Source: Escherichia phage S164
Length of the DNA stretch: 30,272 nt
Direction: 5' to 3' (one strand)
Sequence record: ON239131
Shown here piece by piece: positions 1-30,272 of this stretch. The first letter of the stretch is position 1, and each line of letters opens with the position of its first letter. A model generated the notes under the pieces. That model had not been told where the DNA came from. It made no database searches and saw only the letters and a program-made list of their open reading frames with translations. Position numbers and translations under genes: made by a program.

Positions 1-19
1 GGCGAGGCGGGGAAAGCAC
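1..19. other. cos: cos cohesive-end sequence (left copy)
   Basis: GGCGAGGCGGGGAAAGCAC at 1-19 recurs at 30255-30272 (18 nt, truncated by the window); matches the P2 19-nt cohesive end as I recall it. Confidence 0.8.
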
Positions 20-161
20 TGCGCGCTGGCGGTGGTGCTGATTTTATTTTTTCAGCGTCTGAGCGCGTCGTGATGGCGTTTAGATTGTTCGCCGGGGCGT
101 TGGTGTGTCTGCGGGCTGTTTTGTGCGGTGGTGAGCGTGTGAGGGCGTGATGACGGGGTGT

Positions 162-183
162 AAAAAAGCCGCCCGCAGGCGGC
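162..183 (-). terminator. Rho-independent terminator after Q (minus-strand transcript)
   Basis: Minus-strand reading gives GCCGCC-TGCG-GGCGGC (6-bp stem, 4-nt loop) followed by TTTTTT, just past the Q stop codon at 189-191. Confidence 0.6.
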
Positions 184-188
184 GATGT

Positions 189-1223
189 TCAGCCGTTGTC
201 AGTGTCCAGTGAGTAGTTTTTAAATCGGATGACCTCCTGACCGAGCCAGCCGTTTATCTCGCGGATCCTGTCCTGTAGCGGGATAAGCTCATTGCGGACA
301 AAGACCTTTGCCACTTTCTCAATATCTCCCAGTGACCCGACGTTCTCCGGCTTGCCGCCCATCAACTGAAAGGGGATGCGATGCGCGTCCAGCAGGTCAG
401 CGGCGCTGGCTTTTTTGATATTAAAAAAATCGTCCTTCGTTGCCACTTCACTGAGCGGGATAATTTTAATGCCGTCGGCTTTCCCCTGTGGGGCATAGAG
501 AAACAGATTTTTAAAGTTATTGCGGCCTTTCGACTTAACCATGTTTTCGCGAAGCATTTCGATATCGTTGCGATCCTGCACGGCATCGGTGACGTACATG
601 ATGTATCCGGCATGAGCGCCGTTTTCGTAATACTTGCGGCGGAACAGCGTGGCCGACTCATTCAGCCAGGCAGAGTTAAGGGCGCTGAGATATTCCGGCA
701 GGCCGTACAGCTCCTGATTAATATCCGGCTCCAGCAGGTGAAACACGGAGCCGGGTGCGAAGGCTGTCGGCTCGTTGAAGGACGGCACCCACCAGTAAAC
801 ATCCTCTTCCACACCACGGCGGGTATATTTTGCCGGTGAGGTTTCCAGTCTGATGACCTTACCGGTGGTGCTGTAACGCTTTTCCAGAAACGCATTACCG
901 AACACCAGAAAATCCAGCACAAAGCGGCTGAAATCCTGCTGAGAAAGCCACGGATGCGGAATAAACGTTGAAGCCAGAATATTGCGTTTAACGTAAATCG
1001 GCGAGCTGTGATGCACGGCAGCACGCAGGCTTTTTGCCAGACCGGTAAAGCTGACCGGCGGCTCATACCATCTGCCGTTACTGATGCACTCGACGTAATC
1101 CAGAATGTCACGGCGGTCGAGTACCGGCACCGGCTCGCCAAAGGTGAATGCCTCCATTTTCGGGGCGCTGGCGGTCATTGTTTTTGCCGCAGGTTGCGGT
1201 GTTTTCCCTTTTTTCTTGCTCAT
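189..1223 (-). CDS. Q: Portal protein
   Basis: 344 aa, same length as P2 gpQ; first gene inward from cos; start overlaps the P stop. Confidence 0.9.
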   Translation of the reverse strand: MSKKKGKTPQPAAKTMTASAPKMEAFTFGEPVPVLDRRDILDYVECISNGRWYEPPVSFTGLAKSLRAAVHHSSPIYVKRNILASTFIPHPWLSQQDFSRFVLDFLVFGNAFLEKRYSTTGKVIRLETSPAKYTRRGVEEDVYWWVPSFNEPTAFAPGSVFHLLEPDINQELYGLPEYLSALNSAWLNESATLFRRKYYENGAHAGYIMYVTDAVQDRNDIEMLRENMVKSKGRNNFKNLFLYAPQGKADGIKIIPLSEVATKDDFFNIKKASAADLLDAHRIPFQLMGGKPENVGSLGDIEKVAKVFVRNELIPLQDRIREINGWLGQEVIRFKNYSLDTDNG

Positions 1224-2995
1224 CAGTAAAACTCCAGAATGGTGGATGTCAGCGGAGTGCTGATACCGGCGGTGAGTGGCTCATTTAACAGGGCGTGCAT
1301 GGTCGCCCAGGCGAGGTCGGCGTGGCTGGCTTCCTCGCTGCGGCTGGCCTCATAGGTGGCGCTGCGTCCGCTGCTGGTCATGGTCTTGCGGATAGCCATA
1401 AACGAGCTGGTGATGTCGGTGGCGCTGACGTCATATTCCAGACAGCCACGGCGGATAACGTCTTTTGCCTTGAGCACCATTGCGGTTTTCATTTCCGGCG
1501 TGTAGCGGATATCGCGCGCGGCGGGATAGAACGAGCGCACGAGCTGGAACACACCGACACCGAGGCCGGTGGCATCAATCCCGATGTATTCAACGTTATA
1601 TTTTTCGGTGAGTTTGCGGATGGATTCTGCCTGGGTGGCAAAGTCCATGCCTTTCCACTGGTGACGCTCAAGGATCCTGAATTTGCCACCGGCCACCACC
1701 GGCGGTGCCAGCACCACGCATCCGGCGCTGTCGCCACGGTGTGACGGGTCGTAACCAATCCATACCGGGCGGGAGCCGAACGGATTTGCGGCAAACGGTG
1801 CATAGTCTTCCCATTCTTCCAGCGTATCGACCATGCAGCGTTGCAGCTCCTCGAACGGGAACACCGACGCTTTGTCGTCAACAAATTCACACATGAACAG
1901 GTTTTTAAAATCGTCGGCGCTGTTTTCACGTTTGAGCTGCTCAATGTCGAACAGCGTGCAGCCGCCTTTCAGCGCGTCCTCAATGGTGACAATCTGCCGC
2001 CACTGGCCGTCCGCACAGAGAAGCCCACCGGCAAGGGCGTTATGACTGACGTCGATTTCCACGCGTTCGGCGGCGCTGGCGCGTCCCCGGTTGAACAGTT
2101 CACCCGACCAGAACGGGTAGGCGTCGTGCGCCAGCGTGGACGGGGTGGAGAAATAGGTCGAGCGCAGGTGACTCTGTGAGGCCATACCTGATGCCACCTT
2201 ACGCAGTACCTGAAAATTCGGGATCCAGAAAATCTCGTCGACGTACAGGTCGCCGTTATGGCTCTGTGCGGTGTTGGAGTTGGTGCCGAGAAAAATCAGT
2301 TTTGCACCGTTATTGCCCAGGACAATCGGGTCACCGGTCAGGTCAACGTCAACCAGCCGGGCAAAGGCAATGATGTATTCGCGGAACACATACGCCTGCG
2401 TTTTACTGGCCGACAGAAAAATCTGGTTATGGCCGGTTTTCAGGGCGCGCAGCAGCGCCTCGCGGGAAAAATAAAACGTCGCGCCAATCTGGCGGGATTT
2501 CAGGATATCGCGGATGCGGTGCTCAAGCCCGGCGCGATACCAGTGCAACTGATAGTCGAAAGACTGCTCAAAGAAAATCTGCTCCAGCTTTTCGATGGCC
2601 TCGTCACTGAAAAAATTCTTTTTCGGTTTGCGACGCCCGCCTTTGTTGCGGTTAGCGACGTTCGGATTAAGGTCTGCCTCGTTGCCGGTCTGACTGTAAC
2701 GGTTGACCCGTGCCAGTCGTTCAATCTGGCGTCCGAGCAGGTCAATTTCCTTGAAGTCACCGCCGGTTTTCTGCGGTTTGATGATGAGCTGGGTCAGCCT
2801 CGCTTCCAGACTCATTTCGACACGGCTGATGGGGGCAACGCTGTCCCAGCCGTCGCGCTGTTTCCAGCTCTGCACCGTCGGGCGTTTCATCTGCAACATG
2901 GCGGCAATCTGCGGCACGGAAAATCCCTGCCAGTACAGCAGCGCCGCCTGACGACGCGGGTCGTGTAAAAGAGTGGTGTCTGTGGTGATGGTCAT
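1223..2995 (-). CDS. P: Terminase large subunit (ATPase)
   Basis: ORF 1223-3025; I prefer the internal Met at 2995 (MTITTDTT...), which gives 590 aa as in P2 gpP and has a GAGG-type RBS. Divergent from O. Confidence 0.85.
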   Translation of the reverse strand: MTITTDTTLLHDPRRQAALLYWQGFSVPQIAAMLQMKRPTVQSWKQRDGWDSVAPISRVEMSLEARLTQLIIKPQKTGGDFKEIDLLGRQIERLARVNRYSQTGNEADLNPNVANRNKGGRRKPKKNFFSDEAIEKLEQIFFEQSFDYQLHWYRAGLEHRIRDILKSRQIGATFYFSREALLRALKTGHNQIFLSASKTQAYVFREYIIAFARLVDVDLTGDPIVLGNNGAKLIFLGTNSNTAQSHNGDLYVDEIFWIPNFQVLRKVASGMASQSHLRSTYFSTPSTLAHDAYPFWSGELFNRGRASAAERVEIDVSHNALAGGLLCADGQWRQIVTIEDALKGGCTLFDIEQLKRENSADDFKNLFMCEFVDDKASVFPFEELQRCMVDTLEEWEDYAPFAANPFGSRPVWIGYDPSHRGDSAGCVVLAPPVVAGGKFRILERHQWKGMDFATQAESIRKLTEKYNVEYIGIDATGLGVGVFQLVRSFYPAARDIRYTPEMKTAMVLKAKDVIRRGCLEYDVSATDITSSFMAIRKTMTSSGRSATYEASRSEEASHADLAWATMHALLNEPLTAGISTPLTSTILEFY

Positions 2996-3168
2996 GAATA
3001 CCTCGCCGTGATGAATACACGGCAAGGCTACTGAGTCGCGCCCCGCGATTCGCTAAGGTGCTGTTGTGTCAGTGATAAGCCATCCGGGACTGATGGCGGA
3101 GGATGCGCATCGTCGGGAAACTGATGCCGACATGTGACTCCTCTAATCACTATTCAGGACTCCTGACA

Positions 3169-4023
3169 ATGGCAAAAAAAGTCTCAAAATTCTTTCGTAT
3201 CGGCGTTGAGGGTGACACCTGTGACGGGCGTGTCATCAGTGCGCAGGATATTCAGGAAATGGCCGAAACCTTTGACCCGCGAGTCTATGGTTGCCGCATT
3301 AACCTGGAACATCTGCGCGGCATCCTGCCTGACGGTATTTTTAAGCGTTATGGCGATGTGGCCGAACTGAAGGCCGAAAAGATTGACGATGATTCGGCGC
3401 TGAAAGGCAAATGGGCGCTGTTTGCGAAAATCACCCCGACCGATGACCTTATCGCGATGAACAAGGCCGCGCAGAAGGTCTATACCTCAATGGAAATTCA
3501 GCCGAACTTTGCCAATACCGGCAAATGTTATCTGGTGGGTCTGGCCGTCACCGATGACCCGGCAAGCCTCGGCACGGAATACCTGGAATTCTGCCGCACG
3601 GCAAAACACAACCCCCTGAACCGCTTCAAATTAAGCCCTGAAAACCTGATTTCAGTGGCAACGCCTGTTGAGCTGGAATTTGAAGACCTGCCTGAAACCG
3701 TGTTCACCGCCCTGACCGAAAAGGTGAAATCCATTTTTGGCCGCAAACAGGCCAGCGATGACGCCCGTCTGAATGACGTGCATGAAGCGGTGACCGCTGT
3801 TGCTGAACATGTGCAGGAAAAACTGAGCGCCACTGAGCAGCGCCTCGCTGAGATGGAAACCGCCTTTTCCGCACTTAAGCAGGATGTGACTGACAGGGCG
3901 GATGAAACCAGCCAGGCATTCACCCGCCTGAAAAACAGTCTCGACCACACCGAAAGTCTGACCCAGCAGCGCCGCAGCAAGGCCACCGGTGGTGGCGGTG
4001 ACGCCCTGATGACGAACTGCTGA
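3169..4023 (+). CDS. O: Capsid scaffolding protein
   Basis: ORF 3103-4023; start at MAKKVSKFF gives 284 aa as in P2 gpO; coiled-coil-like C-terminus. Confidence 0.85.
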   Translation: MAKKVSKFFRIGVEGDTCDGRVISAQDIQEMAETFDPRVYGCRINLEHLRGILPDGIFKRYGDVAELKAEKIDDDSALKGKWALFAKITPTDDLIAMNKAAQKVYTSMEIQPNFANTGKCYLVGLAVTDDPASLGTEYLEFCRTAKHNPLNRFKLSPENLISVATPVELEFEDLPETVFTALTEKVKSIFGRKQASDDARLNDVHEAVTAVAEHVQEKLSATEQRLAEMETAFSALKQDVTDRADETSQAFTRLKNSLDHTESLTQQRRSKATGGGGDALMTNC

Positions 4024-4081
4024 CCGGCGTCAGTCAGTCCGGGAAAACCTTCACGATTAACCCTTAATTTCAGGAAAAACT

Positions 4082-5155
4082 ATGCGCCAGGAAACCCGCT
4101 TTAAATTTAATGCCTACCTGTCCCGTGTTGCCGAACTGAACGGCATCGACGCCGGTGATGTGTCGAAAAAATTCACCGTTGAACCGTCGGTCACCCAGAC
4201 CCTGATGAACACCATGCAGGAGTCCTCTGATTTTCTGACCCGCATCAACATTGTGCCGGTCAGCGAAATGAAAGGGGAAAAAATTGGTATTGGTGTCACC
4301 GGCTCCATCGCCAGCACCACCGACACCGCCGGTGGCACCGAGCGTCAGCCGAAGGACTTCTCGAAGCTGGCGTCCAGTAAGTACGAATGCGACCAGATTA
4401 ACTTCGATTTTTATATCCGCTACAAAACGCTGGACCTGTGGGCGCGTTATCAGGATTTCCAGCTCCGTGTCCGTAACGCCATTATCAAACGTCAGTCCCT
4501 TGATTTAATCATGGCCGGTTTTAACGGCGTGAAGCGTGCCGAAACCTCTGACCGCAGCAGCAATCCGATGCTGCAGGATGTGGCGGTCGGCTGGCTGCAG
4601 AAATACCGCAATGAAGCCCCGGCGCGCGTGATGAGCAAGGTTACTGACGAGGAAGGTCACACCACCTCTGAGGTCATCCGCGTGGGTAAGGGCGGTGATT
4701 ATGCCAGCCTCGATGCACTGGTGATGGATGCGACCAACAACCTGATTGAGCCGTGGTATCAGGAAGACCCTGACCTTGTGGTGATTGTGGGGCGTCAGTT
4801 ACTGGCGGACAAGTATTTCCCCATCGTTAACAAGGAGCAGGACAACAGCGAAATGCTGGCCGCTGACGTCATCATCAGCCAGAAACGCATCGGTAACCTG
4901 CCGGCGGTACGCGTCCCGTACTTCCCGGCGGATGCGATGCTCATCACGAAGCTGGAAAACCTGTCCATCTACTACATGGATGACAGCCATCGCCGCGTGA
5001 TTGAGGAAAACCCGAAACTCGACCGCGTGGAGAACTACGAGTCAATGAACATTGATTACGTGGTGGAAGACTACGCCGCCGGTTGTCTGGTGGAAAAAAT
5101 TAAGGTCGGTGACTTCTCCACACCGACTAAAGTGACCGCAGAGCCGGGAGCGTAA
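4082..5155 (+). CDS. N: Major capsid protein
   Basis: 357 aa, same length and position as P2 gpN. Confidence 0.9.
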   Translation: MRQETRFKFNAYLSRVAELNGIDAGDVSKKFTVEPSVTQTLMNTMQESSDFLTRINIVPVSEMKGEKIGIGVTGSIASTTDTAGGTERQPKDFSKLASSKYECDQINFDFYIRYKTLDLWARYQDFQLRVRNAIIKRQSLDLIMAGFNGVKRAETSDRSSNPMLQDVAVGWLQKYRNEAPARVMSKVTDEEGHTTSEVIRVGKGGDYASLDALVMDATNNLIEPWYQEDPDLVVIVGRQLLADKYFPIVNKEQDNSEMLAADVIISQKRIGNLPAVRVPYFPADAMLITKLENLSIYYMDDSHRRVIEENPKLDRVENYESMNIDYVVEDYAAGCLVEKIKVGDFSTPTKVTAEPGA

Positions 5156-5158
5156 CCG

Positions 5159-5902
5159 ATGACGAGTCCCGCACAGCGCCACATGATGCGGGTCTCGGCA
5201 GCGATGACCGCGCAGCGGGACGCCGCCCCGCTGCGACATGCAACTGTCTATGAGCAGATGCTGGTCAAGCTGGCCGCAGACCAGCGCACACTGAAAGCGA
5301 TTTATTCAAAAGAGCTGAAGGCCGCGAAAAAACGCGAACTGCTGCCGTTCTGGTTGCCGTGGGTGAACGGCGTGCTGGAGCAGGGCAAAGGTGCACAGGA
5401 TGACATTCTGATGACGGTCATGCTGTGGCGTCTGGATACCGGCGATATTGCCGGTGCGCTGGAGATTGCCCGTTATGCCCTGAAGTACGGTCTGACCATG
5501 CCGGGTAAACACCGCCGCACCCCGCCGTACATGTTCACCGAGGAGGTGGCGCTTGCGGCCATGCGCGCTCACGCTGCCGGTGAGTCTGTGGATCCCCGCC
5601 TGCTGACGGACACCCTCGAACTGACCGCCACGGCTGACATGCCTGATGAAGTGCGCGCAAAGCTGCACAAAATCACCGGTCTGTTTCTGCGTGACGCTGG
5701 TGATGCCGCAGGTGCGCTGGTACACCTGCAACGTGCGACACAGCTCGACTGTCAGGCAGGCGTCAAAAAAGAGATTGAACGACTGGAGCGGGAGCTGAAA
5801 CCGAAGCCGGAGCCGCAGCCCAAAGCGGCCACCCGCACTCCGCGTAAGACCCGGAGCGTGACACCGGCAAAACGTGGACGCCCGAAAAAGAAAACCAGTT
5901 AA
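5159..5902 (+). CDS. M: Terminase small subunit / endonuclease
   Basis: 247 aa, same as P2 gpM; basic Lys/Arg/Pro-rich C-terminal tail. Confidence 0.85.
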   Translation: MTSPAQRHMMRVSAAMTAQRDAAPLRHATVYEQMLVKLAADQRTLKAIYSKELKAAKKRELLPFWLPWVNGVLEQGKGAQDDILMTVMLWRLDTGDIAGALEIARYALKYGLTMPGKHRRTPPYMFTEEVALAAMRAHAAGESVDPRLLTDTLELTATADMPDEVRAKLHKITGLFLRDAGDAAGALVHLQRATQLDCQAGVKKEIERLERELKPKPEPQPKAATRTPRKTRSVTPAKRGRPKKKTS

Positions 5903-6001
5903 CAACCGAATGCGCCCCGCGCCAGGGCGGCACGCCGGTCAGTGAGGGTGAATCACCTGACACTGCACCGGCGTCCACCGCCCGACTTTTCAGAGGTGGT
6001 C

Positions 6002-6511
6002 ATGATGACGCTGATTATTCCGCGAAAGGAGGCTCCCGTGTCCGGTGAGGGTACGGTGGTCATCCCGCAACCGGCAGGCGACGAGCCGGTGATTAAAAAC
6101 ACGTTCTTTTTTCCCGATATCGACCCGAAGCGCGTCCGGGAACGTATGCGCCTTGAGCAGACCGTCGCCCCCGCCCGTCTGCGTGAGGCCATCAAGTCAG
6201 GCATGGCTGAAACAAATGCGGAGCTGTACGAGTACCGCGAACAGAAAATTGCCGCCGGTTTTACGCGTCTGGCGGACGTTCCGGCGGACGACATCGACGG
6301 TGAAAGTATCAAAGTTTTTTACTACGAGCGCGCCGTGTGTGCGATGGCGACCGCGTCGCTTTATGAGCGTTATCGCGGCGTGGATGCCAGTGCGAAAGGC
6401 GACAAGAAGGCTGACAGCATTGACAGCACCATTGATGAACTGTGGCGGGATATGCGCTGGGCGGTGGCGCGTATCCAGGACAAGCCGCGCTGCATCGTGA
6501 GTCAAATCTGA
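6002..6511 (+). CDS. L: Head completion / stabilisation protein
   Basis: ORF 5942-6511; start at MMTLIIPRKE gives 169 aa as in P2 gpL. Confidence 0.8.
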   Translation: MMTLIIPRKEAPVSGEGTVVIPQPAGDEPVIKNTFFFPDIDPKRVRERMRLEQTVAPARLREAIKSGMAETNAELYEYREQKIAAGFTRLADVPADDIDGESIKVFYYERAVCAMATASLYERYRGVDASAKGDKKADSIDSTIDELWRDMRWAVARIQDKPRCIVSQI

Positions 6512-6714
6512 TGAAGACCTTTGCGCTACAGGGCGACACGCTCGACGCCATTTGTGTCCGGTATTACGGGCGCACTGAGGGCGTGGTTGAGACCGTGCTC
6601 GCCGCAAATCCGGGACTGGCTGAACTGGGTGCGGTGCTGCCACACGGCACCGCCGTCGAACTGCCCGACGTTCAGACCGCGCCCGTGGCTGAAACTGTCA
6701 ATCTGTGGGAGTAA
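6511..6714 (+). CDS. X: Tail protein X
   Basis: Internal Met (MKTFALQGDTLDAI...) of ORF 6442-6714 gives 67 aa, the size of P2 gpX; ATGA overlap with the L stop. Confidence 0.75.
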   Translation: MKTFALQGDTLDAICVRYYGRTEGVVETVLAANPGLAELGAVLPHGTAVELPDVQTAPVAETVNLWE

Positions 6715-6717
6715 CGC

Positions 6718-6999
6718 ATGACAGCAGAAGAAAAAAGCGTCCTGTCGCTTTTCATGATTGGGGTGCTGATTGTTGTCGGCAAGGTGCTTGCCGGTGGTGA
6801 ACCCATCACCCCGCGTCTGTTTATCGGGCGCATGTTGCTCGGTGGTTTTGTCTCGATGGTTGCCGGTGTTGTTCTGGTGCAGTTTCCTGACCTGTCACTG
6901 CCTGCAGTGTGCGGCATCGGCTCCATGCTGGGTATCGCCGGTTATCAGGTGATTGAGATTGCCATTCAGCGCCGCTTTAAGGGCAGGGGGAAACCGTAA
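6718..6999 (+). CDS. Y: Holin
   Basis: 93 aa with hydrophobic transmembrane segments and a basic C-terminus; sits immediately before the endolysin. Confidence 0.85.
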   Translation: MTAEEKSVLSLFMIGVLIVVGKVLAGGEPITPRLFIGRMLLGGFVSMVAGVVLVQFPDLSLPAVCGIGSMLGIAGYQVIEIAIQRRFKGRGKP

Positions 7000-7496
7000 T
7001 GCCGGTAATTAACACGCATCAGAATATCGCCGCCTTTCTCGACATGCTGGCGGTATCCGAAGGGACGGCAAATCATCCGCTGACGAAAAACCGTGGCTAT
7101 GACGTGATAGTCACCGGACTGGACGGGAAGCCGGAAATTTTCACCGACTACAGTGACCACCCGTTCGCGCATGGCCGACCGGCGAAGGTGTTTAACCGTC
7201 GCGGTGAAAAATCCACGGCCTCCGGTCGCTATCAGCAGCTTTACCTGTTCTGGCCGCATTACCGCAAACAGCTTGCCCTGCCGGATTTCAGTCCGTTGTC
7301 ACAGGACAGACTCGCCATTCAGTTGATCCGCGAACGCGGTGCGCTGGATGACATCCGGGCGGGACGCATTGAGCGCGCCATTTCACGCTGTCGCAATATC
7401 TGGGCGTCCCTGCCGGGTGCCGGTTACGGTCAGCGTGAGCATTCACTGGAAAAACTGGTCACCGTCTGGCGTACCGCTGGCGGCGTACCGGCTTAA
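6999..7496 (+). CDS. K: Endolysin (lysozyme/transglycosylase type)
   Basis: 165 aa, same as P2 gpK; position in the lysis cassette. Confidence 0.85.
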   Translation: MPVINTHQNIAAFLDMLAVSEGTANHPLTKNRGYDVIVTGLDGKPEIFTDYSDHPFAHGRPAKVFNRRGEKSTASGRYQQLYLFWPHYRKQLALPDFSPLSQDRLAIQLIRERGALDDIRAGRIERAISRCRNIWASLPGAGYGQREHSLEKLVTVWRTAGGVPA

Positions 7497-7510
7497 ACGG
7501 AGTAAACACC

Positions 7511-7936
7511 ATGAAGAAATTATCCCTTTCACTGATGCTGAACGTGTCGCTGGCGCTGATGCTGGCACTGTCCCTGATTTACCCGCAGAGCGTGGCCGTC
7601 AATTTTGTCGCCGCCTGGGCGATTCTGGCGATGGTTATCTGTGTGGTTGTCGGTGGTGTCGGCGTGTATGCCACTGAGTATGTGCTGGAACGCTACGGGC
7701 GGGAGCTGCCGCCGGAATCGCTGGCCGTGAAGATTGTCACGTCGCTGTTTTTGCAGCCGGTGCCGTGGCGCAGACGGGCGGCGGCTCTGGTAGTGATGGT
7801 GGCGACGTTTATCTCGCTGGTTGCCGCCGGGTGGATTTTTACTGCGCTGATTTATCTCGTGGCGTCGCTGTTTTTCCGGCTGATACGTACGGCCTGCCGT
7901 CAGCGTCTTGAGGGGCGGGAACTATGTCAAAGCTGA
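7511..7936 (+). CDS. lysA: LysA-like membrane protein (lysis timing)
   Basis: 141 aa, several hydrophobic helices; P2 lysA position. Confidence 0.75.
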   Translation: MKKLSLSLMLNVSLALMLALSLIYPQSVAVNFVAAWAILAMVICVVVGGVGVYATEYVLERYGRELPPESLAVKIVTSLFLQPVPWRRRAAALVVMVATFISLVAAGWIFTALIYLVASLFFRLIRTACRQRLEGRELCQS

Positions 7937-8349
7937 TGATTGTGCTGGTCGTGTTGTTATCGCTGGCGGTGGCCGGTCTGTTTCTGGTGAAACACAAAAA
8001 TGCCAGCCTGCGCGCCTCGCTGGGCAGGGCGAATAACGTCGCCAGTGAACAGCTGACGACCATCACCATGCTGAAAAATCAGCTTCATGTTGCGCTCACC
8101 AGAGCAGACAAAAACGAGCTGGCGCAGGTGGCACTGCGTCAGGAACTGGAGAACACCGCGAAGCGTGAAGCACAGCGCGAGAAAACCATCACGAGGTTAC
8201 TCAATGAAAACGAAGATTTTCGCCGCTGGTACGGCGCTGGCCTGCCTGATGCTGTGCGCCGGTTGCACCAGCGCCCGGCCTGCACCGACGCCAGTGATTG
8301 TCGCCAACGCCTGCCCGAAAGTGAGCCTTTGCCCGATGCCGGGCAGTGA
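7924..8349 (+). CDS. lysB: LysB, Rz-like inner-membrane spanin
   Basis: 141 aa; N-terminal transmembrane helix then a charged helical region; P2 lysB position. Confidence 0.8.
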   Translation: MSKLMIVLVVLLSLAVAGLFLVKHKNASLRASLGRANNVASEQLTTITMLKNQLHVALTRADKNELAQVALRQELENTAKREAQREKTITRLLNENEDFRRWYGAGLPDAVRRLHQRPACTDASDCRQRLPESEPLPDAGQ

Positions 8350-8494
8350 CCCGGAGACGAACGGCGATTTAAGTGCCGATATCCGACAGCTTGAGAACGC
8401 GCTGGCACGCTGTGCCAGCCAGGTAAAAATGATTAAACACTGTCAGGACGAAAACGATGCTCAAACCCGACAGCCTGCGCAGGGCGCTGACTGA
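8204..8494 (+). CDS. lysC: LysC, Rz1-like outer-membrane lipoprotein spanin, embedded out of frame in the 3' end of lysB
   Basis: Internal Met (MKTKIFAAG...) of ORF 8087-8494 in the +1 frame of lysB; signal peptide with a Cys-containing lipobox-like motif (LCAGC), Pro-rich; extends into the start of R. Confidence 0.7.
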   Translation: MKTKIFAAGTALACLMLCAGCTSARPAPTPVIVANACPKVSLCPMPGSDPETNGDLSADIRQLENALARCASQVKMIKHCQDENDAQTRQPAQGAD

Positions 8495-21352: not shown

Positions 21353-21433
21353 TGTTTTTATTTTATCTGTTTGTTTTATAAGGATAAATTGACTAAAATG
21401 GCACCATCAACAAAACCGGAAGAGGTGCTCGCG

Positions 21434-21868: not shown

Positions 21869-22864
21869 TTATGGACGCATTATGGACATTCCTGACACCG
21901 GGTTAAGAGTCACAGCATCTTGTAAGAAATCCGGTGCAAAGTGTGCGTAGGTCATAGTTTGCTGAATGTTAGAATGACCCAGGATGCGCTGCAATGTGAT
22001 TATGTTACCTCCATTCATTATAAAATGTGTGGCAAATGTATGCCTCAAAACATGCACTGCCTGTCCGTCAGGTAAATCGGGTTTTACTTCCCTGAGAGCG
22101 TTGCGCACTTTGTAGTAACTGGCATTAAAAAGCCTGCCTGAATTTTTGGTCTTGATCCGTTTAATCAGGTCCTGCGAAACGGGAATTGTCCTGCGCTTTC
22201 CGTTTTTAGTTTTCATAAACGTAACCATCTGGTTAATGATGTGTTCAGCTTTCAAATTAGACACTTCACTCCAGCGTCCACCAGTAGAAAGGCAGACCAG
22301 AGTTGCATTTAACTCATCACCATCAAGCATGGATAACAGCCGCGTAATCTCTTCACTGGACAAAAAAGCCATTTCCGTAACAGCTTCACGTAACCGCTTA
22401 ACCTCACGGAACGGGTTGTGAGAGTGATATTCACCGGCGTCAATTAACTTGGTGAACATCCCGCTCATTATTGCCAGATGCCGATTTACGCTGGCTGGTT
22501 TTAGGCCATCGTTCATCATTACAACGCGATAATCAGTTATCGTTTTCTTTGTTAGCTGGTCCGCCCTGGACACTCCCATCTCGGCAAATTTGGCGATTAT
22601 TGTCGTCAAACGCCCTCGTTCAATATCTCCACGCTCATGTGATTTTCCGTGATATATCCACCATCTGCCTAACAACTCTGTAAGAGTTCGGCGGTCGGCC
22701 GGCTTCTCCAACCACTCTTTGTTGTGGTAGTTAACCAGGACATGACGTTCGAATGCTTGAGCTTCACCTTTAGTTTTAAATTTCCGCCTGATACGTTTTC
22801 CATCTGCACCCTGCGGTCTGACGTCCACTTCATAACGACCATCATCGAGCTTTTTAATAGACAT
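21869..22864 (-). CDS. int: Tyrosine-recombinase integrase
   Basis: 331 aa; C-terminal catalytic region HVLRHTFATH...LGHSNIQQTMTYAHF (His-x-x-Arg and catalytic Tyr); transcribed toward the attP region. Confidence 0.9.
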   Translation of the reverse strand: MSIKKLDDGRYEVDVRPQGADGKRIRRKFKTKGEAQAFERHVLVNYHNKEWLEKPADRRTLTELLGRWWIYHGKSHERGDIERGRLTTIIAKFAEMGVSRADQLTKKTITDYRVVMMNDGLKPASVNRHLAIMSGMFTKLIDAGEYHSHNPFREVKRLREAVTEMAFLSSEEITRLLSMLDGDELNATLVCLSTGGRWSEVSNLKAEHIINQMVTFMKTKNGKRRTIPVSQDLIKRIKTKNSGRLFNASYYKVRNALREVKPDLPDGQAVHVLRHTFATHFIMNGGNIITLQRILGHSNIQQTMTYAHFAPDFLQDAVTLNPVSGMSIMRP

Positions 22865-22957
22865 AAAGCCCTCCGATGACGCTGTTTACTTCTACTACTT
22901 GAAAATTAATGCAATTTTCTTTCGTACATTTACTGCACACATATGCTGAATAAATCG

Positions 22958-23269
22958 TCAGCCAGTCTTTTGGTCTGAGTGGTGCAAGGTTGTTGAGTCT
23001 TGCCCAATGTGCGCGAGCGCCGGGGCTATTTGTCCGCCAGCGGGATCAGTTTCATCAAACATGAACCAGTCACGGTACTTGCGAAATCTTTCTGGCTTGA
23101 AAAATTTCATACCTGCGTCAAAAGACATCTTTACTTTTCCCTGCTCATATCCAGCATAGGTGTTGTAGTTAATTCCAGTTAATTCAGCAACTTGCTTCCT
23201 TGTCATTCTTTCTGATTCCCGAATAAGTGCGAGTTTCTCTGCTTGAGATGTGATTTGTGTATTTGACAT
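22958..23269 (-). CDS. C: Immunity repressor C
   Basis: 103 aa; HTH (RKQVAELTGINYNTYAGYEQG); C-terminus GGQIAPALAHIGQD...HSDQKTG resembles P2 C as I recall it; divergent from cox. Confidence 0.8.
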   Translation of the reverse strand: MSNTQITSQAEKLALIRESERMTRKQVAELTGINYNTYAGYEQGKVKMSFDAGMKFFKPERFRKYRDWFMFDETDPAGGQIAPALAHIGQDSTTLHHSDQKTG

Positions 23270-23368
23270 GAATTGTCGCGTAATTTATGTTGTATGCGAC
23301 ACGCCAGAACAACGCAGAGCGGCTTCAAATAGCTCTGATTGAATGGCACCAAAGTTGAGGATATCAAA
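23270..23368. promoter_or_regulatory. Candidate lysis-lysogeny switch region with divergent promoters (Pc leftward, Pe rightward)
   Basis: Intergenic region between divergent C and cox; imperfect inverted repeat GTCGCGTA...TATGCGAC is a possible operator. No promoter elements verified. Confidence 0.4.
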
Positions 23369-23725
23369 ATGAGTATTGGATCAGAAATGAATAACGATGT
23401 TGGAGAAAAAGTATCTGATCTCACAAAAAGTAAAAAATGTGACATCAAACTTGCAGCCGCACCGTCGGATTTGCTCTCGAAAGAGGGTTTTGCTCTTTAC
23501 ATCGGTAAGACGCCTCGTGCTGTTGCTGAAATGGCGAAAGCAGGCAAGTTACCAGCCTTTTATATGACGGACCCATTAAAGCCGGGCGGTCATGCTGAGT
23601 TATGGATTAATCGTCGTGAGTGGGACAAGTACGCAGCCCAGCTAGTTGATGAAGCTCCGACAGAATGGCATGACTGGAAAAATCGCATTAGTTACAGCAA
23701 ATCAAGACATGGCCGTGCGGCTTAA
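23369..23725 (+). CDS. cox: Cox-like excisionase / early regulator
   Basis: ORF 23339-23725; start at 23369 has a GAGGA RBS; ALYIGKTPRAVAEMAKAGKLPAFYMTDP resembles the P2 Cox HTH segment as recalled. Longer than P2 Cox, so start and identity are tentative. Confidence 0.55.
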   Translation: MSIGSEMNNDVGEKVSDLTKSKKCDIKLAAAPSDLLSKEGFALYIGKTPRAVAEMAKAGKLPAFYMTDPLKPGGHAELWINRREWDKYAAQLVDEAPTEWHDWKNRISYSKSRHGRAA

Positions 23726-23735: not shown

Positions 23736-23906
23736 ATGAACGAGCCTCGTTGTATTGCTCAGTTATTGCGTAACGAAAGCCCCAGGGCGATTGACTTCAC
23801 CATCACCCACGGGAAGGGGCGCAAGGGAATCATTATCCGTACCAAAAAACAGAGTCCGTTAAAAAAGGCTCTGACCTTTCTGAAAAGCCGGAGGGTCTGG
23901 AAATGA
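23736..23906 (+). CDS. Small hypothetical protein (P2 orf78 position)
   Basis: Internal Met of ORF 23646-23906 with a strong RBS (AAGGTGGAAAGG); 56 aa, basic. Confidence 0.5.
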   Translation: MNEPRCIAQLLRNESPRAIDFTITHGKGRKGIIIRTKKQSPLKKALTFLKSRRVWK

Positions 23907-24403
23907 CAGTGATGACGCTTAATCTCGTCGAAAAACAGCCAGCAGCTATGCGCCGGATAATTGGTAAGCATCTTGCCGTCCCTCGCTGGCAGGAGACATG
24001 CGATTATTATAATCAGATGATGGAACGCGAACGGCTAACGGTTTGCTTCCATGCGCAGTTAAAACAGCGTCACGCAACGATGCGTTTTGAAGAAATGAAT
24101 GATGTCGAACGTGAACGACTGGTATGTGCAATTGATGAATTGCGTGGGGCATTCTCAAAACGCCGTCAGGTTGGCGCAAGTGAGTATGCATATATTAGTT
24201 TTTTAACAGTCAGTCAGCGTCGTACTTTATTTATGCATGCCGGATTGACTGAAAAAGAATTCAACCAGCCATACTGGCGAATTAATGAAGAATCATGTTA
24301 CTGGCGTGATGCTTTATTCCGTGCATTACGTGAATTATTCAGCCTGTTTGAGTATGCACCGACAATTCTGACGTCGGTAAAACCAGAGCAATATCTGCAT
24401 TAA
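23903..24403 (+). CDS. B: Replication accessory protein B
   Basis: 166 aa, same as P2 gpB; synteny. Confidence 0.8.
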   Translation: MTVMTLNLVEKQPAAMRRIIGKHLAVPRWQETCDYYNQMMERERLTVCFHAQLKQRHATMRFEEMNDVERERLVCAIDELRGAFSKRRQVGASEYAYISFLTVSQRRTLFMHAGLTEKEFNQPYWRINEESCYWRDALFRALRELFSLFEYAPTILTSVKPEQYLH

Positions 24404-24468
24404 GTAATTAACCAGAGTTTTTAACGCACTTAATTGTGCGGGGGGCTTCTTTTTGCCTGGAGAAAGTC

Positions 24469-24693
24469 ATGCATACAGTTTCTGAAAATCAGTGCGGTAA
24501 ATACGCATTACTGCTGCAACAGGCCAGAACCGAAGCACAGGCCGACGCAGCGACGCGCTTTTCTTCTCATCTTGACGCCATGATTCGCCACATCACAAAG
24601 GCGGAGTTATCCCGCGTGGAGATAGTCGAGCTGCTCAGTCAGGAGTCGGAAAAATTTCACAATATCGGATTGTCTCGCGGGGAGGTGCTTTGA
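24469..24693 (+). CDS. Hypothetical protein (P2 orf80 position)
   Basis: Internal Met of ORF 24436-24693 with RBS GGAGAAAG; 74 aa. Confidence 0.55.
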
Positions 24694-24995
24694 TGTCCTG
24701 TTCTCGTTCAGTTGTATTACTGAATAACGCCTTAAAAATCGCCGTTATGAAAAATGGCGATTTATCTCTTATTCAACTTGGTCTTGATAAAGAAAAACGC
24801 GAAATAACTGAGTCTGTTATCGCGATTTATCAGAACGAATTAAATCTCCTGTCTGATGTGGTCAATTTACTTGTTAAACGCGCTGTATTTCACAAGCAAA
24901 TCTCCTCCGTGGATGAACTGACGAAATTAACGACAGAAATTGCCAGCTATTGCGCTGATGAATTTAAAAAACTTAACGACAAAAGGAGCTGGTAA
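24690..24995 (+). CDS. Hypothetical protein (P2 orf81 position)
   Basis: 101 aa; translationally coupled to its neighbours. Confidence 0.55.
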
Positions 24996-25219
24996 TGCCG
25001 GACAACGTAGATTTTATTCAGAAACAACAGGCTGAATTACTGGAGCGCCAGATTAACGCGGCAAGGGTAAAGCATTGCGGTGTTTCTGCGCTGGTTTGCG
25101 AAGAGTGTGACGCGCCAATACCTGCTGCCCGTCGTGCGGCTTATCCGTCAGCCACGCGTTGTGTTTCCTGCCAGTCAGTCTTTGAAGCAAAAAACAAACA
25201 TTACCGGAGAACGTCATGA
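24995..25219 (+). CDS. TraR/DksA-type C4 zinc-finger protein (P2 orf82 position)
   Basis: 74 aa with CEECDAPIP...CVSCQ, a four-Cys zinc-finger pattern typical of phage TraR-like proteins. Confidence 0.65.
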   Translation: MPDNVDFIQKQQAELLERQINAARVKHCGVSALVCEECDAPIPAARRAAYPSATRCVSCQSVFEAKNKHYRRTS

Positions 25220-25491
25220 GTATTCGTATTGAAATTGGCGAACGTTATGTCGTTACCAGTGACAGCTTTCAGTTTATTCTCCACGAGAAAAAGAGAGCTG
25301 AAAGCGGTAAAAACGCCGGTCAGGAATGGCTGGCGGTGGTTGGTTATTACCCGAAATTAAGCCAGCTTGTTTCCGGCCTGATGCATCACGATATTCTGAC
25401 CGGAAGCGCAAAGTCTTTTGCTGATTTAAACGCGCAGGTTGAGCAACTCAGCAAGCGTTGTTCAGAGGCTTTTGGCTCATATGGCCGTTAA
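25216..25491 (+). CDS. Hypothetical protein (P2 orf83 position)
   Basis: 91 aa; overlaps the A start. Confidence 0.55.
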   Translation: MSIRIEIGERYVVTSDSFQFILHEKKRAESGKNAGQEWLAVVGYYPKLSQLVSGLMHHDILTGSAKSFADLNAQVEQLSKRCSEAFGSYGR

Positions 25492-27766
25492 AGCCTCCGG
25501 GCGTTTTGTCCCTCCGTCAGCATTTGCCGCAGGCACCGGTGAGACGTTTACCGGTGCTTATGCATGGAACGCGCCACGCGAGGCCGTCGGGCGCGAAAGA
25601 CCCCTTACACGTGACGAGATGCGTCAGGTGCAAGGTGTTTTATCCACGATTAATCGCCTGCCTTACTTTTTGCGCTCGCTGTTTACTTCACGCTATGACT
25701 ACATCCGGCGCAATAAAAGCCCGGTGCACGGGTTTTATTTCCTCACATCCACTTTTCAGCGCCGTTTATGGCCGCGTATTGAGCGCGTGAATCAGCGCCA
25801 TGAAATGAACACCGACGCGTCGTTGCTGTTTCTGGCAGAGCGTGACCATTATGCGCGTCTGCCGGGGATGAATGACAAGGAGCTGAAAAAGTTTGCCGCC
25901 CGTATCTCATCGCAGCTTTTCATGATGTATGAGGAACTCTGCGATGCATGGGTTGATGCACATGGCGAGAAAGAATCGCTGTTTACAGATGAGGCGCAGG
26001 CGCATCTGTATGGTCATGTTGCTGGCGCTGCACGTGCTTTCAATATTTCCCCTCTCTACTGGAAAAAATACCGTAAAGGACAGATGACCACGAGGCAGGC
26101 ATATTCTGCCATTGCCCGTCTGTTTAACGATGAGTGGTGGACTCATCAGCTTAAAGGCCAGCGTATGCGCTGGCATGAGGCGTTACTGATTGCTGTCGGG
26201 GAGGTCAATAAAGACCGTTCTCCTTATGCCAGTAAACATGCCATTCGTGATGTGCGTGCACGCCGCCAGGCAAATCTGGAATTTCTTAAATCGTGTGACC
26301 TCGAAAACAGGGAAACCGGCGAGCGCATCGATCTTATCAGTAAGGTGATGGGCAGTATTTCTAATCCTGAAATTCGCCGGATGGAGCTGATGAACACCAT
26401 CGCCGGTATTGAGCGTTACGCCGCCGCAGAGGGTGATGTGGGGATGTTTATCACTCTGACCGCGCCGTCAAAGTATCACCCGACACGTCAGGTCGGAAAA
26501 GGCGAAAGTAAAACCGTCCAGCTAAATCACGGCTGGAATGATGAGGCATTTAATCCAAAGGATGCGCAGCGTTATCTCTGCCGCATCTGGAGCCTGATGC
26601 GCACGGCATTCAAGGATAATGATTTACAGGTCTACGGTTTGCGAGTCGTCGAGCCACACCACGACGGAACGCCGCACTGGCATATGATGCTTTTTTGTAA
26701 TCCACGCCAGCGTAACCAGATTATCGAAATCATGCGTCGCTATGCGCTCAAAGAGGATGGTGACGAAAGAGGAGCCGCGCGAAACCGTTTTCAGGCAAAA
26801 CACCTTAACCGGGGCGGTGCTGCGGGATATATCGCGAAATACATCTCAAAAAACATCGATGGCTATGCACTGGATGGTCAGCTCGATAACGATACCGGCA
26901 GGCCGCTGAAAGACACTGCCGCGGCTGTTACCGCATGGGCGTCAACGTGGCGCATTCCGCAATTTAAAACGGTTGGCCTGCCGACAATGGGGGCTTACCG
27001 TGAACTACGCAAATTGCCTCGCGGCGTCAGCATTGCTGATGAGTTTGACGAACGCGTCGAGGCTGCACGCGCTGCCGCAGACAGTGGTGATTTTGCGTTG
27101 TATATCAGCGCGCAGGGTGGGGCAAATGTTCCGCGCGATTGTCAGACTGTCAGGGTTGCCCGTAGTCCGTCGGATGAAGTTAACGAGTACGAGGAAGAAG
27201 TCGAGAGAGTGGTCGGCATTTACGCGCCGCATCTCGGCGCGCGTCATATTCATATCACCAGAACGACGGACTGGCGCATTGTTCCGAAAGTGCCGGTCGT
27301 TGAGCCTTTGACTTTAAAAAGCGGCATCGCCGCGCCTCGGAGTCCTGTCAATAACTGTGGAAAGCTCACCGGTGGTGATACTTCGTTACCGGCTCCCACA
27401 CCTTCTGAGCACGCCGCAGCAGTGCTAAATCTGGTTGATGACGGTGTTATCGAATGGAATGACCCGGAGGTTGTGAGGACGCTCAGGGGTGCATTAAAAC
27501 ACGGCCTGAAAACACCAAATCGTCAGCAAAGAAACGGAAGCCCGTTAAAACCACATGAAATAGCACCGTCGGCCAGACTGACCCGGTCGGAACGATTGCA
27601 AATTACCCGTATCCGCGTTGACCTCGCTCAGAACGGTATCAGGCCGCAACGATGGGAGCTTGAGGCGCTGGCGCGTGGCGCGACAGTAAATTATGACGGG
27701 AAAAAATTCACGTATCCGGTCGCTGATGAGTGGTCGGGATTCTCAACAGTAATGGAGTGGACATGA
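25481..27766 (+). CDS. A: Rolling-circle replication initiation protein
   Basis: ORF 25439-27766; start at MAVKASGRF gives 761 aa, the length of P2 gpA; translationally coupled to orf83. Confidence 0.85.
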   Translation: MAVKASGRFVPPSAFAAGTGETFTGAYAWNAPREAVGRERPLTRDEMRQVQGVLSTINRLPYFLRSLFTSRYDYIRRNKSPVHGFYFLTSTFQRRLWPRIERVNQRHEMNTDASLLFLAERDHYARLPGMNDKELKKFAARISSQLFMMYEELCDAWVDAHGEKESLFTDEAQAHLYGHVAGAARAFNISPLYWKKYRKGQMTTRQAYSAIARLFNDEWWTHQLKGQRMRWHEALLIAVGEVNKDRSPYASKHAIRDVRARRQANLEFLKSCDLENRETGERIDLISKVMGSISNPEIRRMELMNTIAGIERYAAAEGDVGMFITLTAPSKYHPTRQVGKGESKTVQLNHGWNDEAFNPKDAQRYLCRIWSLMRTAFKDNDLQVYGLRVVEPHHDGTPHWHMMLFCNPRQRNQIIEIMRRYALKEDGDERGAARNRFQAKHLNRGGAAGYIAKYISKNIDGYALDGQLDNDTGRPLKDTAAAVTAWASTWRIPQFKTVGLPTMGAYRELRKLPRGVSIADEFDERVEAARAAADSGDFALYISAQGGANVPRDCQTVRVARSPSDEVNEYEEEVERVVGIYAPHLGARHIHITRTTDWRIVPKVPVVEPLTLKSGIAAPRSPVNNCGKLTGGDTSLPAPTPSEHAAAVLNLVDDGVIEWNDPEVVRTLRGALKHGLKTPNRQQRNGSPLKPHEIAPSARLTRSERLQITRIRVDLAQNGIRPQRWELEALARGATVNYDGKKFTYPVADEWSGFSTVMEWT

Positions 27767-28218
27767 TGGCAAAAATTCACGAGGTAAAGCTGCACGCAAA
27801 ATATTTCGACCTTGTGCTGGAAGGAAAGAAACGCGCAGAGTTTCGGAAAAATGACCGTAATTATGAGCGCGGGGACACGTTGATTTTGCATGAATGGGGG
27901 CAGGGTGTGTATACGGGGCGAAAGGTTGAAGCCCGGATAACAGATGTTACTGACCTGTCAGACTGGCTGGAAGATTATGTCTTGCTAAGTATTGAGCTGC
28001 TTAATACAGGCGCATATGAGATTGTGAACAGGAAAGAACTTAGTGAGCGTGGTCTGTTATTCAGAATTAATCATGAAATTATGCATAAGCTCGGCCTTGC
28101 TGTTATGTATGAACCAGAGACGGGAATGTCTGGCGGGGCAATGGTTGCCACGGATGGAGCATGGAACTATTCAGATGAACAGATGGAGCGTGCACAGCAA
28201 AACGGGTGGCTTGGATAA
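27763..28218 (+). CDS. orf91-position protein with a possible ASCH/PUA-like (DUF3850-type) N-terminal domain
   Basis: ATGA overlap with the A stop; N-terminus MMAKIHEVKLHAKYFDLVLEGKKRAEFRKNDRNYERGDTLILHEW resembles DUF3850/ASCH-like domains from memory; C-terminal half unrecognised. Confidence 0.55.
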   Translation: MMAKIHEVKLHAKYFDLVLEGKKRAEFRKNDRNYERGDTLILHEWGQGVYTGRKVEARITDVTDLSDWLEDYVLLSIELLNTGAYEIVNRKELSERGLLFRINHEIMHKLGLAVMYEPETGMSGGAMVATDGAWNYSDEQMERAQQNGWLG

Positions 28219-28653: not shown

Positions 28654-29385
28654 ATGGATACTATAATCGCTTTTCTATCACTCGCTTTTTTTGTTGCTTT
28701 TTTCATCGGGTTAATCAAGCCATCACTGGTGCGAATGCCAAGCCGCAAACGTGCAAGTGCGGTTTATCTCGGAGGAGGTTTTGTATTGAGCATAATTGGT
28801 TCAATACTCTATCCAACAGAAAAAAGCCAGCCAGTTGCTAAAACTGAAACATCAACCGTTGTAGAACACCAAGTCCAAAAAACATTCGAATATGGTGAAA
28901 AAACACTCAAGGAATATCGGAGCGAGCCAAAGAAAACTCGACACGATATTGTGAATAGTTACATTGACTTTAAGAAAGTTCCAGTCACCGCATCAGATGC
29001 ATTTTATGCCTGCATGAGTGAGTATACATTTACCAAAGATGATGAGTTGAAACTCGGTGATGTTCTTGGGTGGTGCTTTAATGATTATGAAAATGACCCG
29101 AGTTCACTAAATAATAAAATCAATCTTGATACATTTCAGAGTAATTTTAGTGGTTGGGATGGTTCTTATCGTCCATTGGAAAAACTAATTAAAGATAATA
29201 TGAACGATGATTCATCTTATAAACATGTATCAACGGTATATCATTTAGTTTTGAATAAAGACCCGCACGCCATTGTGAAAACGACGTTTCGCGGCACTAA
29301 TGCTTATGGTGGCATGGTCAAACAGACTGTAGCAGCGCGAGTTGACGTGCGAACGGGTGAGATCGATTCAATACTCGACAATTAA
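28654..29385 (+). CDS. Moron gene 1: predicted membrane protein (two N-terminal transmembrane helices plus a ~180-aa C-terminal domain), unknown function
   Basis: ORF 28630-29385 opens on GTG; the ATG at 28654 has RBS AAAAAGGA. Hydrophobic helices IIAFLSLAFFVAFFIGLI and LGGGFVLSIIGSILY. AT-rich relative to the core genome. Occupies the P2 tin/old position. Confidence 0.7.
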   Translation: MDTIIAFLSLAFFVAFFIGLIKPSLVRMPSRKRASAVYLGGGFVLSIIGSILYPTEKSQPVAKTETSTVVEHQVQKTFEYGEKTLKEYRSEPKKTRHDIVNSYIDFKKVPVTASDAFYACMSEYTFTKDDELKLGDVLGWCFNDYENDPSSLNNKINLDTFQSNFSGWDGSYRPLEKLIKDNMNDDSSYKHVSTVYHLVLNKDPHAIVKTTFRGTNAYGGMVKQTVAARVDVRTGEIDSILDN

Positions 29386-29412
29386 ATAATATAGTGACAG
29401 CTCCGTCAGTGA

Positions 29413-29467
29413 TGAAACTTGCTTTTAGTCTTGGCGGGGTTGAGCAATGAGTCTTGCAAGGTGTTAG
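29413..29467 (+). repeat. Copy B of the ~55-bp direct repeat preceding moron gene 2
   Basis: See copy A; lies 28 bp after the stop of moron gene 1. Confidence 0.75.
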
Positions 29468-29507
29468 CATGCGTAGAATGGAAGCTGCTTGGACGTGGGG
29501 TATTCAT

Positions 29508-30125
29508 ATGAATTTAAAAATTTTCGGCATAATTGTCCTTTCTGCTTTGATGTTCGTTTTAGGTTTTTTTCTCGGTGGTTTTAATTGGGAATGGGCTGAT
29601 AAGAATTATGCAGGTGAGGTGGCGTTGTGGAGTATGTTAGGAGGGTGGTTATCCGCAATTGCAACTCTGTTTGCCGTGTTGGTTTCATTATATATGGCGT
29701 ATCAAGCTACTCAGAATGAGATTGAAAAAATCAGGGTTACTCATGGAGTAAGTATGAGTGTCACTCATGACAATGAGTTAAGTTGTAATCTCATTATTCA
29801 GAACTTGAGAAATATGAAAGTGAATATTACTGGTGTTTTTTTGTCTCTAGGTAAATCATCAGGTAAGTACTCTTTGGATAAAGTAATTGACAATTGTAAT
29901 ATAACGCTTTCATATAAAGGTGAAACAGAAAAGGTACAATTTGTAATCCATTCTGGGTATATTTGGTGGTCAATGTATAAATTATTCGATATGGATAAGA
30001 ACATAGGTTTTGAAAAGGGTAAGATCTTTATAACAACCAACCTCAATACATATGAATTTGATTTGCCAAAAGAATATTTAAGAGCTTTTGAGAAAGCTTA
30101 TTCGGAGTATCAGACAAAAAAATAA
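29508..30125 (+). CDS. Moron gene 2: predicted membrane protein (N-terminal transmembrane hairpin plus a ~140-aa C-terminal domain), unknown function
   Basis: ORF 29454-30125 opens on TTG; first ATG at 29469, but I prefer MNLKIFGIIV at 29508. Helices IFGIIVLSALMFVLGFFLGGF and LGGWLSAIATLFAVLVSLYMAY. Strongly AT-rich with A/T-rich codon usage; last gene before cos. Confidence 0.7.
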   Translation: MNLKIFGIIVLSALMFVLGFFLGGFNWEWADKNYAGEVALWSMLGGWLSAIATLFAVLVSLYMAYQATQNEIEKIRVTHGVSMSVTHDNELSCNLIIQNLRNMKVNITGVFLSLGKSSGKYSLDKVIDNCNITLSYKGETEKVQFVIHSGYIWWSMYKLFDMDKNIGFEKGKIFITTNLNTYEFDLPKEYLRAFEKAYSEYQTKK

Positions 30126-30254
30126 TGAGCTGCATGCAAAAGGTGCATGTTTTTGCATGTGCTAAGTTCACTGGTTTTGTGTATATCGCTTCAGATCTAG
30201 CGTGGTTCCGGGGAGGGCATGCAACTGCATTAAAACCGCTCCATGAAGCGGGCG

Positions 30255-30272
30255 GGCGAGGCGGGGAAAGCA
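30255..30272. other. cos: cos cohesive-end sequence (right copy, 18 of 19 nt)
   Basis: Exact repeat of window positions 1-18. Confidence 0.8.

Follow-up and report, generated by a model that had tools for sequence, protein, structure and literature searches.

The 30,272-nt genome of Escherichia phage S164 (sequence record ON239131), analysed here as a single stretch and hereafter called the window, begins and ends in the cohesive-end site (cos) of the phage P2 family. Between these ends lie the genes of a P2-like phage in the order cos-Q-P-O...D-ogr-attP-int-C-cox-B-A-cargo-cos, which is the order of the P2 virion map. The window is very probably one complete, intact unit of a temperate P2-like (Peduovirus-type) phage in linear virion order. 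Comparisons were made against 50,697 phage records and 5,426 complete E. coli genomes, and also against GTDB representatives and IMG/VR. Four features make up the termini.

1..19, plus strand: cosL, the full 19-nt cohesive end GGCGAGGCGGGGAAAGCAC
20..90, plus strand: conserved cos flank right of the nick, the terminase recognition side, with 1-2 differences from P2 across the first ~40 nt and common to Wphi, HQ103 and the prophages L001 and L007
30227..30254, plus strand: conserved cos flank left of the nick, TGCATTAAAACCGCTCCATGAAGCGGGCG, kept in P2, Wphi, HQ103, P24E6b and prophages
30255..30272, plus strand: second, incomplete cohesive-end copy with 18 of the 19 nt, the final C being absent; an exact repeat of 1-18

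A reading made earlier from the letters alone (the sequence-only reading) had given the two ends as identical over 18/19 nt. Alignment gives exactly 18 nt, GGCGAGGCGGGGAAAGCA, shared by the prefix 1-18 and the suffix 30255-30272, and this is the longest agreement between prefix and suffix. The chance of such an 18-nt identity is 4^-18, or ~1.5e-11. Because exact repeats of 16-17 nt (families D5 and D6) are also present elsewhere in the window, it is the terminal position of this repeat (family D13), and not its length, that is significant. Bases 1-19 agree at every position with cosL and cosR as annotated in the P2 reference NC_001895 and with the published 19-nt P2 cohesive end, 5'-GGCGAGGCGGGGAAAGCAC-3' (PMC3931495, citing Padmanabhan 1974 and Ziermann & Calendar 1990), so the terminal identity is one shared with the P2 family. 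The right copy is short of only the final C, and the non-redundant unit genome is therefore 30,254 bp.

When the joined ends of the window are compared with P2, Wphi, HQ103, P24E6b and two E. coli prophages, conservation extends ~28 nt to the left of the nick and ~70 nt to its right. The 19-nt overhang is identical in all compared records but P24E6b, and all of them finish ...GAAGCGGGCG directly before the nick. Public records write cos in two ways. The P2 record NC_001895 gives the 19 nt at both ends (19+19), while the records of Wphi, HQ103 and P24E6b give cos once, at the left end only, and finish ...GAAGCGGGCG. The window is written in the P2 style, one base short (19+18). A cos-to-cos layout is the standard, and ordinary, way of writing a P2-family genome.

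Two other origins have been considered for these ends. The window could be a circular assembly, of a replicative form, an excised circle or a metagenomic contig, with a terminal repeat that is an assembler overlap and not cos. Short terminal direct repeats are frequent in circular contigs, and the repeat measures 18 nt against the biological 19 nt. However, the first base of the window is precisely that of the P2 cohesive end, for which an arbitrary break has a chance of 1 in 30,254, and the repeat consists of the cohesive-end sequence and nothing else. The overlaps left by assemblers usually have the length of a k-mer. We regard this origin as very unlikely. Alternatively, the window may be the cos-to-cos interval of a tandem double lysogen or concatemer, its ends being two cos sites in a larger molecule. 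A P2 dilysogen would hold the expected series, cos...ogr, an attP-like junction, int...cos, but the right end of the window is not arbitrary, falling at the cohesive-end boundary after 18 nt of the second cos, and no tandem arrangement was seen among the E. coli hits inspected, which makes this interpretation extremely improbable.

The segments of the interior that can be placed on the P2 map are listed below; identities are to the amino acid sequences of P2.

189..2995, minus strand: Q (portal, 189-1223) and P (large terminase, 1223-2995), 99.7% and 100% identical, full length
3169..9369, plus strand: O-N-M-L-X-Y-K-lysA-lysB-lysC-R-S operon, 94-100% identical, full length and collinear
5159-5902, plus strand: M of that operon, small terminase/endonuclease, 96.8% identical
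9436..13779, plus strand: V-W-J-I-H-G baseplate and tail-fibre operon, with H at 11929-13344 and G at 13357-13779, from P2 identity and Pfam
15050..21652, plus strand: FI-FII-E(E')-T-U-D tail operon and ogr (21434-21652), 92-100% identical, full length
21869..23725, both strands: heteroimmune lysogeny module with int 21869-22864 (minus), C 22958-23269 (minus) and cox ending at 23725 (plus), from P2 homology and Pfam
23736..28218, plus strand: early replication operon orf78-B-orf80-81-82-83-A (A at 25481-27766), 96-100% identical, then an orf91-like protein, with Pfam support

A tblastn comparison with 42 P2 proteins matched 38 of them, from Q to orf91, collinearly and with one alignment each. 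These matches are full length outside the partial matches of H, G and orf91, and identity is mostly 92-100%. The other four, orf30, fun(Z), tin and old, are non-essential P2 accessory genes and had no tblastn match in the window. Q, P, int and C lie on the minus strand, and O-S, V-G, FI-D, ogr, cox, orf78, B, orf80-83, A and orf91 on the plus strand. The rolling-circle replication genes B and A are 98.8% and 98.2% identical to those of P2; V, W and J are 96-99.7% identical and I is 82% identical. The absence of orf30 leaves only 66 bp between S and V (9369-9436), an arrangement that is also found in Wphi, HQ103 and P24E6b. In the fibre region, where Pfam finds Phage_tail_fib, Gp53-like_C and Caudo_TAP, the match of H to P2 is limited to its N-terminal 337 aa (51%) and that of G to its C-terminal 68 aa (41%). 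Int, C and Cox, with the Pfam domains Int_N, Phage_integrase, HTH and Phage_Cox, are 53%, 48% and 35% identical to their P2 counterparts.

At the DNA level, three segments are unlike P2: the fibre tip and invertase (12.0-15.0 kb), int/C/cox (21.7-23.7 kb) and the last 2.3 kb. Each of them is of phage type according to Pfam or PHROG and also occurs inside other P2-like prophages. No tRNA or transfer-messenger RNA (tmRNA) was found in a scan of the window, and no Rfam family was found across it at gathering thresholds. The window holds no host gene, and its sole host-like sequence is the 13-bp core of the attachment (att) site. Compared with P2 (NC_001895, 33,593 bp), the window has the identical cohesive end with conserved flanks, cos at both record ends, the same collinear genes and the same operon layout, in a unit genome that is 3.3 kb shorter. 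It differs in the four missing accessory genes, in its heteroimmune Int, C and Cox, in another tail-fibre tip accompanied by an invertase, in another cargo between gpA and gpQ, and in the 18-nt right copy of cos.

The orf91 homologue (27763-28218) is ~150-162 aa long, against 109 aa in P2, and matches the P2 protein over the first 75 residues only. Its domains are DUF3850/ASCH followed by a DUF7415-type tail.

The gene order can also be compared with that of integrated relatives. The closest chromosomal relative is prophage L007 (NZ_OZ040091; 92% coverage, 96.9% identity), which sits between pflA and pflB and reads, from pflA, int-C-cox...A-orf91-cargo-cos-Q-P...D-ogr up to pflB. Its att cores are at 3001 and 33496 and its cos is at 11487. 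It matches the window in three blocks.

Window 21760-30272: L007 2995-11504
Window 1-12681: L007 11487-24161
Window 14315-21781: L007 26046-33512

Window 12682-14314, the variable tail-fibre cassette, is unrelated to its L007 counterpart. Given this block-wise match, the window is the same circle opened at cos instead of att. Two further E. coli prophages, L001 and L004, contain exactly the 100 nt that span the joined ends of the window, and in both the last 300 nt before the repeat and the first 300 nt form a continuous stretch with a single cos between cargo and Q. The prophage-derived phage records pro147 and pro483 start or finish exactly at window 21766, which is a prophage-order layout. 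The same int type adjoins pflA in E. coli prophages.

These comparisons bear on whether the window could be a prophage, or a piece of chromosome, that retains flanking host DNA or has a hybrid att site. Prophages of the P2-like type are very common, and 2,195 of the 5,426 E. coli genomes match the D-to-C region. Against such an origin, the window holds no host gene, tRNA or non-coding RNA, its att region is an attP with phage arms on both sides of the core, and its gene order is permuted relative to real prophages. We give this possibility next to no credence; it is refuted by the intact attP together with the permutation relative to L007.

The sequence-only reading had described the window as a whole phage genome running from cos to cos, in virion order and not permuted at att, with no host gene. 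The P2 cohesive end at the termini, the collinear genes and the permuted prophages bear this out, as does the agreement of the gene order with the P2 map, that of L007 being permuted at att, and neither host gene nor tRNA emerged from the tRNA/tmRNA scan, Rfam or the P2 gene comparison. That reading had also proposed a search of host genomes for the joined right and left ends, which are indeed contiguous, with one cos, in L001 and L004.

A complete virion-order unit would arise as follows. The terminase (gpM and gpP, near-identical to those of P2) would recognise a cos of ~55 bp on the circular replication product and introduce nicks with a 19-nt stagger; the intervening DNA would be packaged as a linear molecule with complementary 5' overhangs. 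After injection, annealing and ligation of the ends would restore one cos, with the cargo on one side of it and Q on the other. Lysogeny would open this circle elsewhere, through recombination by Int between the attP core (21766-21778) and its identical 13-bp counterpart where pflA starts. The resulting prophage would read, from pflA, int-C-cox-B-A-cargo-cos-Q-P...D-ogr up to pflB. By analogy with P2, we infer that cleavage in this phage would occur at the P2 positions. The phage is presumably viable, judging from its intact genes.

Several points weigh against the window being a packaged unit in this form. The right cos copy has 18 nt and not 19, which makes the window an imperfect P2-style representation. 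A virion strand carries the cohesive sequence once, so its duplication is a record convention or a product of end filling. The sequence would read the same with termini determined experimentally on virion DNA as with termini chosen by analogy with P2. In addition, no identical genome was found in the phage collection or the complete E. coli genomes; the best matches are pro483, with 92% of the first 25 kb covered at 97.4% identity, and NZ_OZ040091, at 92% and 96.9%. It is possible, although we consider it rather unlikely, that a prophage or circular assembly was rotated in silico to cos by analogy with P2 and that cos was then copied to the right end, in which case the record would not be direct evidence of packaged DNA. 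The 18-nt copy in place of 19 nt resembles an editing or slicing slip, and the sequence offers nothing against such a rotation. This account differs from a virion-derived record in provenance only, not in the nature of the DNA. We infer that virion DNA, and not such a rotation, is the source of the record.

Taking the window as a complete cos-to-cos unit has practical consequences. The P2 map applies directly to its coordinates, a search for host flanks is needless, and the true unit length is the 30,254 bp given above. The attachment site can be assigned exactly, and the limits of three slots with non-P2 content are set, at fun(Z), at int/C/cox and between gpA and gpQ. The closest overall relatives are pro483 (KR073661), pro147 (KR073660) and the NZ_OZ040091 prophage, all of the same int type. 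The last of these also shares its cargo pair with the window and contains an invertase cassette. Unlike the window, these three are in prophage order and begin at the att core (window 21766). The phage is below 95% (coverage x identity) to anything in the phage collection, and combines known modules into a new mosaic without being an element of a new kind.

The sequence-only reading had held that the att site and insertion context could not be read from the window. This was too strong, as attP is intact and its core and attB can be fixed to the base via host genomes. The parts of the site are as follows.

21696..21888, plus strand: intact attP, from a four-way comparison of attP, attB, attL and attR and from the arm consensus
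21696-21703 and 21707-21714, plus strand: P-arm repeats TGTGGTCA and TGTGGACG, matching the P2-type consensus
21766-21778, plus strand: 13-bp attP core ACCAATAACTGAC, common to attP, attB, attL and attR
21870-21877 and 21881-21888, plus strand: P'-arm repeats TATGGACG and TATGGACA, matching the P2-type consensus

The P2-type arm consensus is tgTGGaCa (PMC3448106), and the arm sites of the window form two pairs of direct repeats, 11 bp apart. The match of the window to E. coli chromosomes breaks at ~21760. The attP of the window was compared with attB of K-12 and with the attL and attR that flank a prophage remnant in strain H5; all four sequences fit a 13-bp crossover core, with every flank accounted for and no unexplained base. 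To the left of the core, attP has the phage side of attR, and to the right the phage side of attL, so that phage arms lie on both sides. In K-12, attB is located between pflB and pflA and consists of the G of the pflA ATG and codons 2-5, at NC_000913.3 951066-951078, and its core is identical at 13 of 13 positions.

The D-ogr-attP-int arrangement in E. coli H5 and H6 first seemed to be an uninterrupted chromosomal attP and was rejected as such, being a deleted prophage remnant between pflA and pflB. The H5 remnant (L003 20007-23393; also in H6) consists of int-C, a small open reading frame and D-ogr, with both att cores intact.

Phages that appear to use this insertion site have been described. 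PhiD145 and PhiD160 were placed at MG1655 position 950293, and PhiECA29 was given the same site identity (Nilsson et al. 2011, PMC3448106); ECA29 is reported to disrupt pflA (PMC13492144). The integration module of the window appears to be PhiD145-type, a link made via the site coordinates in PMC3448106 and not via PhiD145 sequence, and the window appears to share with the PhiD145/PhiD160 type a site at the start of pflA, along with P2-type arm repeats (PMC3448106; Mandali et al. 2010 cited therein). The complete E. coli genomes, 5,426 in all, divide exactly between the two states of the site: 405 have the attL junction and 5,021 an empty attB. The published position 950293 and the core found here differ by ~777 bp; we take them to be the same site, assuming a shift between versions of the MG1655 record.

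Integration at this core has consequences for pflA. It turns the pflA ATG into AAG and moves the native upstream region ~30 kb off, to attR. An in-frame ATG is present on the phage side at window 21837, on the minus strand, 31 nt past the int stop and on the same strand as int. This start adds 19 residues, MSNLTNCNTTENTAAAGATK-SVIG..., to give a PflA of 265 aa against 246 aa in K-12, and the RefSeq annotation of lysogens has the 265-aa PflA (e.g., L002 3281-4110). No terminator-like site was found on the minus strand between int and the core (window 21779-21871). We tentatively suggest, from sequence features and with some doubt, that integration may strip pflA of its native promoter, ribosome-binding site and ATG, and that PflA would then be made from the prophage C-int transcript, tying formate metabolism to the immunity switch. 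If true, this rewiring touches a core anaerobic gene, that of the pyruvate formate-lyase activating enzyme, in 7.5% of E. coli genomes.

Another non-P2 slot, that of fun(Z), together with the adjoining fibre genes, appears to form a tail-fibre cassette that may be invertible.

12965..14341, no strand assigned: putative invertible tail-fibre segment with 26-bp Din-type sites, from a site scan, in-silico inversion and match boundaries
12965-12990: ixL, TTCTCGCATACCTTCAATTGGGAGAA, candidate crossover site in H
14316-14341: ixR, TTCTGCTAAACGAACGTTTATGAAAA, candidate crossover site just upstream of the invertase
13932 to ~14327, minus strand: alternative H C-terminus inside the putative invertible segment, which also holds, on the same strand, a short G' (61 aa)
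14391..14990, plus strand: serine DNA invertase of the Hin/Gin/Cin/Pin family in the P2 fun(Z) slot (Pfam Resolvase 8.4e-53, HTH_7 5.6e-13)

The candidate crossover sites come from a scan that tolerated 7-8 mismatches to hix and cix. When 12977-14329 is inverted in silico, an alternative tip of 131 residues comes to follow the constant part of H in the same reading frame, and the resulting H' has 481 aa. Matches in the phage database end at 12991, the edge of ixL, and similarity to L007 restarts at 14315. The centres of the candidate sites are TT and AA, and the frames agree. The arrangement resembles those of Mu (G/Gin), P1 (C/Cin) and e14 (P/Pin) in that a serine invertase gene lies directly downstream, that two inverted 26-bp candidate sites resemble hix/gix/cix, and that an alternative fibre C-terminus and an assembly gene are located on the opposite strand, with an in-frame swap predicted on inversion. 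It differs from these systems in that the two sites share only 17 of 26 positions, that G' is only 61 aa long and that inversion is here putative. The reading as an invertible cassette is weakened by this short alternative assembly gene and by the searched collections, in which no flipped isoform was found, the cassette itself being without a close match there. The segment 12992-14315 has no close DNA match in the phage records or complete E. coli genomes, and an exact 47-mer of the fibre tip has none in IMG/VR. Relatives of the fibre-tip protein in GTDB representatives and IMG/VR are at most 62% identical, except for one 21-residue fragment at 76%.

The last slot, between gpA and gpQ, holds a pair of cargo genes.

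28654..30125, plus strand: cargo in the tin/old slot, a 243-aa protein (28654-29385; phrog_3403) and a 218-aa protein (29469-30125; phrog_16957), both of families without annotated function

P2-like phages have a defence hotspot at the cos-proximal gpA-gpQ locus, which in P2 is occupied by old and tin (Rousset et al. 2022, PMC9122126). The cargo of the window has the same location, between gpA/orf91 and cos/gpQ, and its GC (guanine plus cytosine) content is ~37%, compared with ~55% in the rest of the genome. In structure models, both proteins have N-terminal membrane helices followed by a soluble domain, and the model of the second gave nothing specific. Neither protein has a Pfam hit, or a PADLOC 2.0 hit at E <= 0.1, and a PADLOC run on the cargo and orf91-like proteins returned a lone noise hit of 0.027; a PDB sequence search with the cargo profiles gave nothing meaningful. 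The pair differs from known hotspot defences in matching no PADLOC model and no Pfam family. From position alone, one might guess at a defence role, perhaps as a so far undescribed superinfection-exclusion or abortive-infection pair. The family of the first cargo protein is spread across Enterobacterales and that of the second is small. The same pair is found in prophages of E. coli and in P2/186-like prophages of Klebsiella, with gpA on one side and the portal gene on the other, and in Photorhabdus a P2-like element has a lone homologue of the first protein at its edge. Among the 5,426 E. coli genomes, only 29 match 80% or more of the cargo-containing query (27700-30272).

The E. coli records H42, H45, H48, H54 and H60 start at the first base of gene A of a P2-like prophage (window 25481), and in these five the match to window 27700 falls at record position 2220. 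Start-fixing software apparently took gpA for the chromosomal start gene, splitting the prophage over the record origin.

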